Below are positions 22,101 to 25,457 of a DNA stretch of 64,000 nt, piece after piece. The notes beneath the pieces are model-generated. The model did not search any database. It was not told where the DNA came from and saw only the letters and a list, made by a program, of their open reading frames with translations. The position numbers and the translations under genes are program-made. This DNA comes from an uncultured Bacteroidales bacterium (GTDB lineage Bacteria; Bacteroidota; Bacteroidia; Bacteroidales; VadinHA17), in the NCBI GenBank assembly GCA_963732365.1, contig CAVSZC010000007.1:8625-72624 (forward strand), given 5' to 3'. How positions within the stretch are numbered: the first letter of the stretch is position 1; each line of letters begins with the position of its first letter.

Positions 22101-24029
22101 ATGGGAAAAATTATCGGTATTGACCTTGGAACTACAAACTCATGCGTCTCAGTAATGGAGGGCAATGAGCCTGTGGTTATACCAAACAGTGAAGGCAAAA
22201 GGACCACCCCGTCGGTGGTGGCGTTCCTCGAGAACGGCGAGCGCAAGGTAGGAGACCCTGCCAAGAGACAGGCTATCACCAACCCTCGCAAGACCGTCTC
22301 TTCAATCAAGAGATTCATGGGCAGGAGCTATGACGAGGTTACCAATGAGATGAAGAAACTCACCTATGAGGTTATACGCGGTGACAATAACACCCCCAGG
22401 GTGAAGATAGATGACCGTAACTATTCTCCACAGGAGATCTCTGCCATCGTTCTTCAGAAGATGAAGAAGACCGCTGAGGATTACCTTGGTCAGGAAGTTA
22501 CTGAAGCCGTCATAACTGTCCCCGCTTACTTCAACGATTCTCAGCGTCAGGCCACAAAAGAGGCAGGCGAGATCGCAGGACTGAAAGTAAAGAGGATCAT
22601 CAACGAGCCGACGGCAGCATCACTTGCATATGGCCTTGACAAGAAGTCACAGGATCTTAAGATAGCCGTATTCGACCTGGGAGGCGGCACATTTGACATT
22701 TCAATACTGGAGCTTGGTGACGGCGTCTTCGAGGTTAAGTCAACCAACGGAGACACACACCTCGGCGGCGATGACTTTGACAACCTTGTCATAGACTGGC
22801 TGGCAGACGAGTTTCAGAAAGAAGAAGGGATCGACCTGCGCAAGGACCCGATGGCCCTGCAGAGACTCAAAGAGGCTGCGGAGAAGGCAAAGATAGAGCT
22901 CTCAAGCACATCGAATACGGAGATCAATCTCCCCTATATCATGCCTGTAAACGGAATACCCAAGCACCTTGTCAAGAATCTATCAAGGGCTCAGTTCGAG
23001 AAACTCACTGACAAGCTCATCAACTCAGTGATCGAACCGTGCCGCAAGGCTCTCGATGACGCAGGTATGAAGACATCGGATATTGACGAGGTTCTGCTTG
23101 TTGGAGGATCAACACGTATCCCTGCCATTCAGCAGGTAGTCGAGAAGTTTTTCGGCAAGGCACCTTCAAAGGGGGTGAACCCTGACGAGGTAGTTGCCGT
23201 AGGCGCTGCAATACAGGGCGGCGTTCTCACCGGTGAGGTGAAGGATGTGCTGCTGCTTGACGTCACTCCGCTATCCCTTGGCATTGAGACCATGGGAGGC
23301 GTTATGACGAGACTGATCGAGTCAAACACAACCATCCCGACAAGAAAGACCGAGACCTTCACCACCGCCAGCGACAGCCAGCCGTCAGTGGAGATACATG
23401 TACTGCAGGGAGAGAGACCTATGGCCTCAGGCAATAAGACCATCGGCCGGTTCCATCTTGACGGCATACCGCCAGCCCCCAGAGGAATACCTCAGATAGA
23501 GGTAACCTTCGATATCGATGCGAACGGTATCCTCCATGTCTCGGCAAAAGACAGGGGAACAGGCAAGGAACAAAGGATACGTATCGAAGCCTCATCAGGA
23601 CTGAGCGACGATGAGATACGCCGTATGCGCGAAGAGGCTAAAGCCAATGAGAATGCCGACAAGACCGCCAGGGAGATGGCTGACAAGGTTAATGCTGCCG
23701 ACAGCATGATCTTCCAGACAGAAAAACAGCTTAAGGAGTTTGGCGACAAGATACCGTCTGACAAGAGAGGCCGCATCGAGACAGCCCTCAGCTCACTGCG
23801 CGAAGCTCACAAGAACAGGGACGTAGCGGCAATAGACAGCACACTGGCAGAGATAAATGCCGCATGGCAGGCCGCCTCTGAAGATATGTACAAAGCCTCA
23901 CAGGGTGCCGGACAACAGGCAGGCCCACAGGCAGGCCCACAGGCAGGCCAAACAGGCGGTGACGCCTCCGGCGGCAAACAGGGTGGCGAAGAACAGGTGA
24001 CCGACGTCGATTTCGAAGAGGTTAAGTAA
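22101..24029 (+). CDS. dnaK: Molecular chaperone DnaK (Hsp70)
   Basis: 642 aa. [19 protein letters not shown], and a C-terminal EEVDFEEVK-type tail. Confidence 0.98.
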
Positions 24030-24048
24030 AGATAACAGCAGCAATGCC

Positions 24049-24086
24049 AGAGCCGCCACGGGAATTCCCGCGGCGGCTCTTCATTT
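24049..24086 (+). terminator. dnaK terminator hairpin
   Basis: AGAGCCGCC-ACGGGAATTCCCGC-GGCGGCTCT, about 15 bp of nested pairing, followed by TCATTT. Confidence 0.6.
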
Positions 24087-24167
24087 AAGTTTAAAAATCA
24101 CGGGTAAAATTATTTGACCCTCTACAAGGGTCTATTAAAATGATTGCATTCAATTCTACAATAATTC

Positions 24168-24611
24168 GATGATCTACGATCATCTCATTATAGATATGCA
24201 GAGCATATTGCGTCATAATCCAAAAGCCTTTTTCTGATCTTCGCAGAAGATCAAATTATTATTCTGCCAAAATAAGCCCGATGATCTGCGATCATCTCAT
24301 TATGAATTGCTGAGGACATTCCGTGATACCTCCCTGTTTCTTCTATGATCTTCGTAGAAGATCAAATTATTATTCTGCCAAAATAAGCCGATGATCTGCG
24401 ATCATCTCATTATAGATATGCAGAGCATATTGCGTCATAATCCAAAAGCCTTTTTCTGATCTTCGCAGAAGATCAAATTATTATTCTGCCAAAATAAGCC
24501 CGATGATCTGCGATCATCTCATTATGAATTGCTCAGGACATTCCGTGATACCTCCCTGTTTCTTCTATGATCTTCGTAGAAGATCATATTATTGTAGAAA
24601 TGTGCGTTTAA
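24168..24611. repeat. Tandem 2 x ~222 bp composite repeat, each unit made of two ~111-bp subunits sharing GATC-rich triloop palindromes
   Basis: GATGATC-T(A/G)C-GATCATC at 24168, 24280, 24390 and 24502. TGATCTTC-G(C/T)A-GAAGATCA at 24235, 24346, 24457 and 24568. The two central ~45-bp segments alternate in the order A, B, A, B. The two copies differ at only a few positions. Confidence 0.9.
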
Positions 24612-24680
24612 GTATGGAGGATGGTCGTAGACCATCAAATAATCAACGCTTGTTATTATCTTAGCGAATAATTAATCCCG

Positions 24681-25457
24681 ATGAAAACAGGTATCCTCAT
24701 TTCAGCTTTAATCATTTGGCTGCCATTTCTTTGCCATTCCCAGAATCTGACCGATTCAACCGGCAGAAAACAGGGGCCGTGGATAAAAAAGTATCCCAAC
24801 GGCAAAACTATGTATGAAGCCACATTCAGGGATGACAAACCTGTTGGACTTTTCAAAAGATATGATGCCGACGGTAACCCTCAGTCTGAACTGACCTACA
24901 ACGAAAAAAACGATGAGGTAAAGGCTGTCTTCTTCTACCCTGACGGACGAAAAGCAGGTGAAGGAACTTACATAAACAGAAAGAAAGAGGGCCCATGGAG
25001 ATTCTATCCGTCAACGGAACCTCAATACATGATAGGCGAGGAATATTATCACAATGACGTTAAACACGGCCTGGCCCGCAAGTTTCACCCTGACGGTACC
25101 CTGGCGGAGAGTATCACCTGGGACAACGGCAAGAGGACAGGAGGATGGATGCAATATTACCCAGATGGCAAAATATCACTCAGGGCTGAATATATCGACG
25201 GCAAACTGAACGGCCCTTTTTCATTCTACCATCCCAACGGAAAACTGCAGTTTGAAGGCAAGTATAAAGATGACTTCCGCGACGGAGACTGGATGGTATT
25301 CAATGAAGACGGCTCACTCAAACAGGTGATGGTTTACAGGCAGGGGCGACTGTCTGATCCGCAATATTCCGAGAAAGAGACAGAGTTTCTCGATGAGCTT
25401 GAGAAAAACAGGGGCAAAATAAAGATCCCGGATATCAGCGGCAACATAATCAAGTGA
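24681..25457 (+). CDS. MORN-repeat variant protein (YwqK-like), secreted
   Basis: 258 aa with a signal peptide and repeated G.W..YYP.GK / G.F..Y..NG units. Confidence 0.7.
   Translation: MKTGILISALIIWLPFLCHSQNLTDSTGRKQGPWIKKYPNGKTMYEATFRDDKPVGLFKRYDADGNPQSELTYNEKNDEVKAVFFYPDGRKAGEGTYINRKKEGPWRFYPSTEPQYMIGEEYYHNDVKHGLARKFHPDGTLAESITWDNGKRTGGWMQYYPDGKISLRAEYIDGKLNGPFSFYHPNGKLQFEGKYKDDFRDGDWMVFNEDGSLKQVMVYRQGRLSDPQYSEKETEFLDELEKNRGKIKIPDISGNIIK

Follow-up and report, generated by a model that had tools for sequence, protein, structure and literature searches.

The intergenic region that follows dnaK in an uncultured Bacteroidales bacterium, at positions 24108–24643 of the 64,000-nucleotide stretch of DNA analysed here (the window), is in all likelihood a BIME-like cluster belonging to a REP/REPtron-like system that is tied to an IS200-like Y1 gene. 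Its hairpins are members of a dispersed family linked to that gene, which argues for a mobile repeat of the REP/BIME type and against a methylation switch or a regulator of dnaK. To our knowledge, REP/BIME repeats and RAYT enzymes are known almost wholly from the Proteobacteria, and how they spread is unsolved. The present locus is compact, defined at the sequence level and drawn from an uncultured member of the Bacteroidales. Its apparent enzyme is of a Y1 subclass recorded without repeats, the putative substrate of ~30 nt suits direct cleavage and strand-transfer assays, and related species show one and the same chromosomal site in empty, occupied and differently amplified form. Together these properties would make it a practical system in which to study how HUH enzymes seed and amplify hairpin arrays.

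A sequence-only reading of the window had described the array and had offered a REP/BIME-like family, binding sites for a dimeric protein, a methylation-sensitive switch, or a multi-hairpin sRNA or 3' UTR as possible explanations. As a whole it is partly supported: the first of these options is upheld by the dispersed loci, by the bracketed Y1 gene and by relatives that share the hairpins together with the gene. The same reading had set its more special proposals against a common dispersed REP-type element; since the array is such an element, those proposals lose their basis.

Structure of the array between dnaK and the MORN gene

The dnaK gene (22101–24029; HSP70, 868 bits) is followed at 24049–24080 on the plus strand by an intrinsic terminator hairpin, AGAGCCGCCACGGGAA/TTCCCGCGGCGGCTCT, whose 16-nt arms form a 94% complementary inverted repeat with an RNA folding energy of −27.8 kcal/mol. 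This terminator bounds the inserted element on the left, and the array begins 36 nt past it. On the right, the MORN promoter region (24650–24680) is kept downstream of the element, ahead of the MORN-repeat gene itself (24681–25457, plus strand; Pfam MORN_2, 95.7 bits); an S8 protease gene is also among the neighbours. The ten 17-nt mini-hairpins noted in the earlier reading, eight of them internal (P and Q) and two flanking, do lie between the dnaK terminator and the MORN gene.

The proposed 222-bp unit, repeated twice and composed of two 111-bp subunits, is recovered by Tandem Repeats Finder as a period of 222 (2.0 copies, 97% matches over 24160–24593) and a period of 111 (3.2 copies over 24235–24593); in a repeat search of the window, 24160–24371 and 24382–24593 are 98% identical. 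The near-identity claimed for the two 222-bp copies stands up to ~24586, before which they differ solely at 24176 (A/G) and 24312 (G/C), and fails thereafter, where the second copy departs from the first. The order P (TAC-type), core, Q (GTA-type), linker recurs four times in tandem, as in a BIME. The cores, thought earlier to be ~45 bp, measure 50–51 nt, and the linkers 26–27 nt, with core and linker alternating along the array. Nor are the two core sequences unrelated, as had been supposed: cores A and B share ~60% identity, with an alignment score of 11 as opposed to −7.4 ± 3.7 for 2000 shuffles.

Read from left to right on the plus strand, the cluster takes the form of a four-hairpin REP-type element with its inner module amplified to four copies. 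It opens with an outer-left REP unit (24108–24132) made up of AATTATT, one spacer base and the hairpin GACCCTC-TAC-AAGGGTC (24116–24132), the closing pair of which is mismatched; this unit matches AATTATTTGACCATCTACGAAGGTCA at C1:224455, 225635 and 225800. The inner-left REP unit, P1 (24156–24184), comprises CTAC (24156–24159), AATAATT (24160–24166) and GATGATC-TAC-GATCATC (24168–24184), in agreement with the family consensus, TTCTACAATAATTt plus GAnnnTC-TAC-GAnnnTC. The remainder of the first subunit (24185–24279) holds core A1 (24185–24235), Q1 (GATCTTC-GCA-GAAGATC, 24236–24252) and linker L1 (AAATTATTATTCTGCCAAAATAAGCCC, 24253–24279). By eye, L1 can be read as AATTATT, the tail of a right end, fused to the tag and tail of a left end in degenerate form (TTCTGCCAAAATAAGCC versus TTCTACAATAATTC). 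In the second subunit (24280–24389), P2 (loop TGC) is followed by core B1 (24297–24346), Q2 (loop GTA, 24347–24363) and linker L2 (24364–24389). The third (24390–24501), with P3 (loop TGC), core A2, Q3 (loop GCA) and linker L3, is evidently a recent copy of the first, from which it differs solely at 24176/24398. The fourth (24502–24597) carries P4, core B2, Q4, the tail TTATT and the tag GTAG (24594–24597), and retains the native right end: Q4 has a 10-bp stem, TATGATCTTC-GTA-GAAGATCATA, and its tail and GTAG are the mirror image of CTACAATAATT. Closing the cluster is an outer-right REP unit (24620–24643), GATGGTC-GTA-GACCATC (24620–24636) plus AAATAAT, identical to copies at C1:225067, C5:795654 and C6:12658. 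The internal P hairpins, GATGATC-T(A/G)C-GATCATC, start at 24168, 24280, 24390 and 24502, and the Q hairpins, GATCTTC-G(C/T)A-GAAGATC, at 24236, 24347, 24458 and 24569.

This arrangement suggests a basic element with two TAC-oriented hairpins on the left, two GTA-oriented hairpins on the right and a ~50-nt core between them. The inner 111-bp module (hairpin, core, hairpin, linker) would have been duplicated long ago, yielding the diverged cores A and B, and the 222-bp pair would have been duplicated later, in the recent past. Such arrays may grow and shrink by slippage, by unequal exchange between hairpin-plus-tail repeats, or by enzyme-mediated strand transfer.

A dispersed family of tagged hairpins

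The BLAST check proposed in the earlier reading, run with the array against the genome, reveals a dispersed family and not a unique locus, with matches elsewhere at C1:224400–226000, C1:347200, C1:480000, C5:795600 and C6:12530, so that the family occupies six loci on four contigs. A tolerant census counts 35 seven-bp hairpins, none of them outside the six loci, to which an 87-bp C1 array adds ~10 six-bp hairpins, for a family size of ~45 copies. The pattern GANNNTCGTAGANNNTC occurs 28 times and its reversed control 0 times. A hairpin of the family consists of a 7-bp stem, GAnnnTC, and a TAC/GTA triloop, with an A/T heptamer on its outer side. The inner hairpin pair bears in addition a CTAC/GTAG tag, located beyond the heptamer at 8–9 nt from the foot of the stem, with position frequencies of 0.73–0.78; the outer hairpins are without it. 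The four-hairpin architecture is found in unamplified form, like the basic element of the dnaK array, at C1:347160–347350 and C1:479990–480190. As befits short extragenic stem-loops of the REP kind, all family loci are intergenic and lie between unrelated genes, in some cases between divergent promoters. Among the neighbours, which include AsmA-like, TPR, ArsR-type regulator, M28 peptidase, lipoate ligase, beta-lactamase-fold, GDSL esterase and EPSP synthase genes, no common function is apparent.

The pairing of the stem is conserved in this family. Of 153 instances, 136 show complete pairing at the three free positions of the stem (1/64 expected), with 12 stem types represented. Across 122 distinct units, stem changes on both sides account for 150 cells, as opposed to 50.6 ± 5.0 in shuffles, and the covariation score is 0.406 versus 0.095, with 0 of 500 shuffles as high. 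The compensatory changes by which REPs keep their pairing are thus present here, too. A second covariation, of loop with tag (TAC to TGC along with CTAC to CTGC), had been suggested by the internal P units and was rejected, as TGC with CTAC and TAC with CTGC both occur family-wide. The cores are weakly conserved across loci, those of C1 and C6 forming one group and cores A and B of the window another; differences this strong between loci suggest that the element has not moved whole recently, or else that the hairpins alone are maintained.

In published parallels, BIMEs are REP/iREP pairs with variable linkers, frequently arranged in tandem, and the genes for TnpA-REP have cognate REPs on their flanks (PMC8266576; PMC3733652). 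Among the closest counterparts is the REP/BIME-REPtron of E. coli (TnpA-REP/RAYT; Ton-Hoang and co-workers, PMC8266576), with which the present system shares tagged extragenic palindromes in inverted pairs, variable linkers and tandem arrangement, as well as a single HUH/Y1 gene flanked by its own palindromes, which are also dispersed intergenically. On the other hand, E. coli REPs have stems of 20–50 nt with a bulge, whereas here a perfect 7-bp stem carries a triloop; their tetranucleotide tag directly abuts the palindrome, whereas CTAC (the complement of GTAG) stands 8–9 nt off with the A/T heptamer between; and they number in the hundreds per genome, as opposed to ~45 here and 95 pattern matches in the richest relative (PMC8266576).

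The inverted hairpin doublets around a spacer, apparently the basic unit here, recall the REPIN-RAYT systems of Pseudomonas (Bertels and Rainey, PMC3116915, PMC3337134), as do paralogue-specific repeat families within one genome and persistence at orthologous sites across species. Unlike REPINs, the present units have spacers that vary strongly by locus and fold separately rather than as one long hairpin, and the family is small and goes with a different protein clade. The GTAG-tagged palindromic families (Di Nocera et al. 2013, PMC3733652) likewise have stems of 6–9 bp, loops of 2–3 nt and compensatory changes, form head-head and tail-tail dimers, and cluster through tandem reiteration of dimers plus flanking DNA. 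In those families, GTAG abuts the stem, or is separated from it by a dinucleotide in two of them, in contrast to the 8–9 nt found here; the text of the article lists Bacteroidetes only among phyla with CGTC repeats; and its sections consulted here describe neither an A/T heptamer spacer nor an invariant C-TAC-G loop.

The bracketed Y1 gene

The largest hairpin cluster of the genome brackets a 167-aa HUH/Y1 gene at C1:225126–225629, on a different contig from the dnaK array. Its product, which has the HUH motif and catalytic tyrosine of the enzyme class, matches Pfam Y1_Tnp (PF01797) over residues 7–120 with 79.6 bits. Arrays of GTA hairpins lie upstream of the gene and arrays of TAC hairpins downstream, with the tags on the gene-proximal side, so that the gene is flanked by inverted palindromes as in a REPtron. 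The same inverted layout is present in all homologues of at least 64% identity (L027–L037, L102 and L119). More distant homologues have different stems of the same CTAC-N7-n-stem-TAC-stem design, and across Bacteroidota a tagged TAC-triloop hairpin in the expected orientation is found on the flanks of 69 of 80 homologue loci. Several Y1 paralogues occur in one genome, each with its own repeat family; that of the paralogue at C5:858k is CTACAAAGCTg-GATGCC-TTC-GGCATC.

The association extends to the genus. Among 61 congeneric genomes, a Y1 homologue of at least 54% identity is carried by 11 of the 14 that are hairpin-rich and by 6 of the other 47 (Fisher p = 7.5e-6); the three hairpin-rich genomes without one, G004, G008 and G021, are all draft or incomplete assemblies.

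With respect to class, the protein differs from E. coli TnpA-REP, a class 2 enzyme with the motif Y---NP (PMC8266576), in having class 1 Y---Q--HH, here YILNQEEHH, and it scores 16 bits against the NCBIfam class 2 model REP_Tyr_transpos (NF047646), for which the cut-off is 80. To judge from a by-eye comparison with Table 1 of Quentin, Siguier, Chandler and Fichant (2018, PMC6006769), it appears to belong to TnpA-Y1 subclass 1.2, the motifs of which (DH[IV]H, WQ, YIKNQKEHH) resemble its own DHVH, WQ and YILNQEEHH; the length (~150 aa in the subclass), the low copy number, the divergence of the paralogues and the host (the subclass being one of Bacteroidetes or Cyanobacteria) fit as well. Subclass 1.2 enzymes are listed there as having no REPs, in contrast to this gene and the 69 of 80 homologues with tagged triloop hairpins on their flanks, and in contrast, too, to the spread of those hairpins into BIME-like arrays in this genus. 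The dnaK array is ordinary in kind, and this literature record is the one unusual point about it.

By analogy with IS200/IS605 and TnpA-REP enzymes, the Y1 protein would bind its hairpins as folded single-stranded DNA and cut near the tag, and such cleavage could seed or move hairpin copies in trans. The subclass 1.2 enzymes of Bacteroidota may on balance constitute a second, independent lineage of the REPtron type, with a substrate composed of the CTAC tag, a 7-nt spacer, a 5–7-bp stem and an invariant C-TAC-G triloop; we hold this somewhat more readily than its contrary. If it is true, the dnaK array exemplifies mini-hairpins that are carried in trans to intergenic sites far away, survive there through speciation, and are reshaped, lineage by lineage, into differing BIME-like arrays.

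An alternative that we regard as possible, though doubtful, is that the Y1 gene and its terminal hairpins are an ordinary selfish insertion sequence of the IS200 type rather than a domesticated REPtron, with PATE/MITE-like miniature derivatives, in which case the dnaK array would be a decayed, locally amplified, non-autonomous copy. The protein does pass, marginally, the NCBIfam IS200/IS605 equivalog model (NF033573; 58.6 bits versus a cut-off of 55). Its best relatives of solved structure in the PDB are the TnpA proteins of ISDra2, with which its DHVH and KYI motifs align, and of IS608. Different species share a conserved hairpin-gene-hairpins block of ~700 bp, and, as with IS200/IS605 elements and their miniature derivatives, the catalytic domain is the same, hairpins occupy both ends, and non-autonomous hairpin-only copies exist. 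Moreover, the gene lies in different chromosomal places in G000, G018 and G057, its locus in the dnaK-array genome is non-syntenic with those of G018 and G057, and G015 has three copies; in these respects it looks more like an insertion sequence than a domesticated gene. Against this, the array-linked orthologue is present in one copy, the five Y1 matches in the genome being at most 49% identical to one another, and there are neither multiple identical nor near-identical full-length copies, as subclass 1.1 would have, nor any tnpB with the gene. The flanking hairpins are inverted, symmetric mirror images with gene-proximal tags, whereas IS200/IS605 elements have two distinct, like-oriented ends on one strand. 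Finally, at each of the two places examined in this respect, the dnaK site and the C1:480 locus, the dnaK-array genome and G024 are both occupied, which suggests vertical persistence. The selfish-element account and the REPtron-like system that we favour differ solely in the degree of domestication.

The dnaK site among relatives and other readings of the array

Most relatives that retain the dnaK-MORN pair have an empty site after dnaK: the terminator stands at the same place and is followed directly by the MORN promoter, a TTAGTATCTTTAC-type sequence, as in G016, G008 and G010 (~90–110 bp). In G018 and G024 the site holds arrays of the same hairpins in which another unit has been amplified. 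Comparison of occupied and empty states at the dnaK and C1:480 loci defines no insertion boundaries or target site, because the intergenic flanks are too diverged for the ends of the element to be placed.

We consider it unlikely that the array is transcribed and acts as RNA, be it as a 3' UTR of many hairpins or a read-through buffer by which dnaK mRNA is stabilised, or as a source of small RNAs. Hairpins with T-rich tails do give terminator-like scores on both strands (11 sites versus 1.0 ± 1.0 in shuffles), the stems fold as RNA at −7.5 to −9.9 kcal/mol, and for classical REPs an influence on mRNA stability and on termination is reported (PMC8266576). However, the strong dnaK terminator precedes the array, the same hairpins occur between divergent promoters and beside unrelated genes, the site is empty in most relatives, and no Rfam family was matched in 23500–25200 at E values up to 10, the best match (E = 0.22) falling below the gathering score. 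The REP-type array would be expected to have no dedicated role for dnaK and at most to supply weak, bidirectional terminator-like hairpins ahead of the MORN promoter; it is probably of little importance for dnaK biology. For annotators of Bacteroidota genomes, palindrome- and GATC-rich intergenic arrays call for a check of the genome's Y1 genes before regulation is proposed.

It is quite improbable that the two-fold 222-bp structure is an artefact of assembly. Arrays of this type do break short-read assemblies, an independent contig (L129) stops within the second P hairpin, and the contigs of the closest relative end at the dnaK-MORN intergenic region. Yet the element itself is confirmed by the independent assembly, a metagenome contig from a strain 96.4% identical that has the same start of the array; two positions distinguish the 222-bp copies; the genome is in nine contigs, and the array lies well inside one of 545 kb; and comparable arrays exist in several relatives; the count of four subunits is given as assembled.

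That the paired GATC sites form a Dam-methylation-sensitive switch, or sequester a GATC-binding protein, is a very remote prospect. The excess of GATC noted earlier is real, with 16 sites in the 520 bp of 24116–24636 versus ~2 expected (window mean 4.1 per kb), and a candidate D12-class adenine methyltransferase is encoded at C5:1371837–1372547 (149 bits). However, GATC pairing is not family-wide: the motif is present in ~46% of stems and missing from the commonest, GATGGTC (45 of 136 fully paired instances), while pairing, TAC loop and tag are what is conserved. Genome-wide, GATC occurs at 4.2 per kb, as expected from base composition. Its presence in merely ~46% of stems marks it as a by-product of stem sequence, and the GATC richness of the array would stem from the amplification of particular stem variants.

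We give equally little credence to the dimeric-protein option, in which the palindromes serve as double-stranded operators for a regulator of dnaK or of the MORN-S8 protease genes: perfect 17-bp palindromes, regularly spaced and intergenic, invite it, but copies within the one genome vary at three stem positions and are always compensated on the other arm, which preserves pairing and not a recognition sequence, and five unrelated loci, as well as the surroundings of a transposase gene, carry these palindromes, too, with the dnaK site empty in most relatives that have the same gene pair.

A CRISPR array was dismissed, as there are two 'spacer' types only, each present twice and homologous to the other, among dnaK, MORN-repeat and S8 protease neighbours. 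Small proteins were likewise considered and set aside: two 22-codon minus-strand frames run by eye through the P hairpin, and other family members share no open reading frame. Beyond the P hairpin, A units and B units have different minus-strand frames, owing to the 1-nt linker difference, and a 53-aa plus-strand open reading frame at 24503–24664 is likewise a by-product.

The array and its four-hairpin element

The array lies between dnaK (22101-24029), whose strong terminator hairpin occupies 24049-24080, and a MORN-repeat gene (24681-25457). Tandem Repeats Finder resolves 2.0 copies of a 222-bp unit with 97% matches (24160-24593) and 3.2 copies of a 111-bp unit (24235-24593), and a repeat search gives 98% identity between 24160-24371 and 24382-24593, bearing out the two near-identical 222-bp copies of 111-bp subunits described in the sequence-only reading. 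Its eight internal and two flanking palindromes were all placed by exact pattern search: four P hairpins (GATGATC-T(A/G)C-GATCATC; 24168, 24280, 24390 and 24502), four Q hairpins (GATCTTC-G(C/T)A-GAAGATC; 24236, 24347, 24458 and 24569) and the flanking pair at 24116 and 24620. The count of 16 GATC sites was also confirmed. The cores between P and Q, by contrast, had been put at ~45 bp and called unrelated; they measure 50-51 nt, and cores A and B are diverged homologues, ~60% identical (alignment score 11 versus -7.4 ± 3.7 in 2000 shuffles). The implied history is that a 111-bp module was duplicated long ago, that the cores then drifted to ~60% identity as hairpins and linker stayed identical, and that a recent doubling of the 222-bp pair left two point differences.

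When the array is compared by BLAST with its own 3.88-Mb genome (nine contigs, the window being C7:8625-72624), hairpins with A/T-rich tails are found at five further places, C1:224400-226000, C1:347160-347350, C1:479990-480190, C5:795600-795770 and C6:12530-12680, so this is not a unique locus. A tolerant census of the whole genome counts 35 seven-bp and ~10 six-bp hairpins, none of them outside the six loci that include the array; the pattern GANNNTCGTAGANNNTC occurs 28 times, its reversed control 0 times. All six loci are intergenic, and their neighbouring genes are functionally unrelated.

Unamplified copies form a four-hairpin element of ~210-230 bp, which reads AATTATT, one base and an outer-left hairpin (loop TAC); a spacer of ~22 nt; CTAC, AATAATT, one base and an inner-left hairpin (loop TAC); a core of 45-59 nt; an inner-right hairpin (loop GTA), one base, AATTATT and GTAG; a spacer of ~22-25 nt; and an outer-right hairpin (loop GTA), one base and AATAAT. 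The ends of the array are exactly those of this element (outer-left unit, 24108-24132; inner-left, 24156-24184; inner-right with GTAG, 24566-24597; outer-right, 24620-24643), and the inner hairpin-core-hairpin-linker module occurs four times. By eye, the 26-27-nt linker looks like a right tail fused to a left one whose sequence, tag included, is degenerate.

Different loci have amplified different pieces of the element, an 87-bp unit being repeated ~6 times at C1:224512-225030. A 115-aa open frame (C1:224510-224857), with a peptide period of 29 residues, runs through that array; it arises as a side effect of the repeat, and gene callers might annotate it. At C5:795602-795770 the arrangement is reversed, two GTA hairpins, an 11-nt junction and two TAC hairpins, which is the layout found around the Y1 transposase gene described below but with no gene inside; it may be either a tail-to-tail dimer or the remnant of a REPtron without its gene.

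The dnaK site among relatives

The dnaK-MORN adjacency is kept across the genus. In three congeneric genomes (G016, G008 and G010) the site is empty, the terminator being followed directly by the MORN promoter in a gap of ~90-110 bp. In two others (G018 and G024) it holds arrays of the same hairpins, beginning with a near-identical outer-left unit; G018 shares the flank AGTTTAAAAAT with the window array. The inner pieces amplified in these two differ from those in the window, G018 having a 55-57-bp unit seven times. The C1:479990-480190 locus is occupied in G024 too, and there the element is absent from G005, G004 and G075. Hairpin occupancy is polymorphic between species and tandem amplification lineage-specific. 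Given the shared occupancy at both loci, the insertions look old and vertically retained, with the arrays apparently remodelled afterwards. Comparison of the genome and its relatives gave no sign of a specific connection of the array to dnaK.

The same gap carries other repeats in other genomes: (AACCTCAACCTT)n at a contig end in G014 (G014:C47:1-110), and CCCCATGCC-type repeats in G020 and G015. It seems prone to gaining repeats of several kinds. Within dnaK itself, the C-terminal G/Q/P-rich tail contains 2.9 copies of a 12-bp repeat, ACAGGCAGGCCC (23915-23949), and a 96.4%-identical strain has one unit fewer, an in-frame length polymorphism.

Stem pairing and competing readings

Stem conservation was examined in 153 pattern instances from the genome and the retrieved loci, with three free stem positions left unconstrained for pairing. 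These positions are fully complementary in 136 of the 153 (1/64 expected), with 12 different stem triplets. Among 122 distinct units, 150 cells have changed on both sides versus 50.6 ± 5.0 when shuffled, and the covariation score of 0.406, against 0.095, was reached in 0 of 500 shuffles; sliding the partner columns abolishes the signal. On the 5' side, the flank consensus is TTCTACAATAATTt. What the family conserves is the hairpin structure. Such compensated differences among copies within one genome are what a cruciform or a folded single strand would show, and do not fit a sequence-specific double-stranded operator.

Could the array act as RNA? The hairpins with their T-rich tails do resemble weak bidirectional terminators (11 sites versus 1.0 expected) and would fold at -7.5 to -9.9 kcal/mol, but they lie beyond the -27.8 kcal/mol dnaK terminator, and an Rfam search found no family for the array. 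The methylation-sensitive switch suggested earlier, acting through GATC, has in its favor a D12-class (Dam-family) adenine methyltransferase gene (C5:1371837-1372547; PF02086, 149 bits). Yet only ~46% of family stems contain GATC, and the genome mean of 4.2 sites per kb is about what base composition predicts; the motif is not a conserved feature of the family, and its genome-wide frequency is ordinary.

That the element itself is an assembly artefact is unlikely, its subunit number here being as assembled. An independent metagenome contig (Ga0209262_10015139), 96.4% identical over dnaK, shows the same succession of parts, from the outer-left unit through P, core A and Q to the linker, and breaks off within the following P, in the way that repeats end short-read assemblies. 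An operator array, akin to the binding sites for a dimeric protein also proposed from sequence alone, is contradicted by the stem covariation, by the dispersal of the hairpins and by relatives in which the gene pair is retained but the site is empty. Coding and CRISPR readings both fail.

A Y1 transposase gene and its hairpins

The REP/BIME-like family envisaged by the sequence-only reading is what emerges: dispersed, extragenic and pairing-constrained, its hairpins bracket, in the largest cluster, a 167-aa ORF (C1:225126-225629). The product matches Pfam Y1_Tnp (79.6 bits) and NCBIfam IS200/IS605 (58.6 bits, cut-off 55), and reaches only 16 bits against NCBIfam REP_Tyr_transpos, whose cut-off is 80. 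Among solved structures, its closest relatives are the ISDra2 and IS608 transposases, with which its HUH and Tyr align. GTA-type hairpins stand upstream of the gene and TAC-type hairpins, the other orientation of the family, downstream, their tails and tags on the side nearer the gene.

A genome-contig scan with this protein gave 218 relatives, the best 80 of which were retained; they come mostly from uncultured Bacteroidales MAGs. Among these 80, all homologues of at least 64% identity have GTA hairpins upstream and TAC hairpins downstream; those at 54-61% have 5-bp GC-rich stems and retain the plan CTAC-N7-n-stem-TAC-stem. At 69 of the 80 loci there is at least one tagged hairpin oriented as expected, its loop nearly always TAC (198 sites versus 68 in the opposite orientation). 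In a survey of 61 genomes of the genus, 14 are hairpin-rich (at least 10 pattern matches; background 0-4). A Y1 homologue of at least 54% identity is present in 11 of these 14, one truncated copy counted, versus 6 of the 47 others (Fisher p = 7.5e-6, the richness and identity thresholds having been set after seeing the data); the assemblies of the three hairpin-rich genomes without one are incomplete or fragmented. Hairpins and gene co-occur and co-vary, and the family belongs to the Y1 transposase gene.

In kind, array and gene are of the REP/BIME or REPtron type (PMC8266576; PMC3116915; PMC3733652), and the array is genuine: a mobile-repeat cluster that is well explained and of an ordinary sort. 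The locus adds a distal family member, on another contig than the gene, at a site that some species have empty and others occupied, with amplification differing among them. By its DHVH, WQ and YILNQEEHH motifs, size, low copy number and host, the protein matches subclass 1.2 (Quentin et al. 2018), which that paper describes as close kin of IS200 transposases but without IS properties (PMC6006769). The sole mildly novel aspect is this link to a Y1 subclass so far regarded as free of such repeats; we found no later description of repeats for it in full text that leaves subscription journals mostly uncovered, an absence that is not proof.

Following what is known of IS200/IS605 and TnpA-REP (PMC8266576; PMC6006769), the Y1 enzyme would bind the hairpin where DNA is single-stranded, such as at a replication fork, and would use sequence beside the stem foot to pick a nearby cleavage site, for which the conserved CTAC, 8-9 nt upstream of the stem, is the obvious candidate; it would then cut and rejoin the DNA via a 5'-phosphotyrosine intermediate. 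Arrays could arise when the hairpin-plus-tail repeats of 25-45 bp slip or exchange unequally, or by strand transfer between equivalent sites, which is possible because every unit has its own tag. Tags face the Y1 gene on both its sides and lie outside in the doublets; read from topology alone, this arrangement suggests that what moves is the doublet rather than the gene.

The genome has four further Y1 matches, none of which exceeds 49% identity to the C1 gene, and each has different flanking hairpins. One paralogue (C5:858320-858664, within C5:858075-859014), 42% identical, has the family CTACAAAGCTg-GATGCC-TTC-GGCATC, with the tag-spacer-hairpin design of the C1 family; its general form, CTACAAAGCT(g/t)-GATGCC-NNN-GGCATC, is dispersed on C4, C5 and C7 (copies at C4:262893-264198 and C7:170825-172071). 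Another, at C6:29611-29853, is a 191-aa class-2 RAYT-type gene (DHIH, YIIKNP) adjoining a tRNA-like sequence, with the classical GTAG-tagged palindrome GTAGAGACAGGTCTGAGACCTGTCTCTAC on both sides, so that canonical and IS200-like REPtron-type systems coexist in this genome. The remaining two, subclass-1.2-like, lie amid GC-rich hairpins of other sequence: C3:20238-20579 (YIRNQQEHH) and the N-terminally truncated C4:45849-46040 (YIMNQEEHH).
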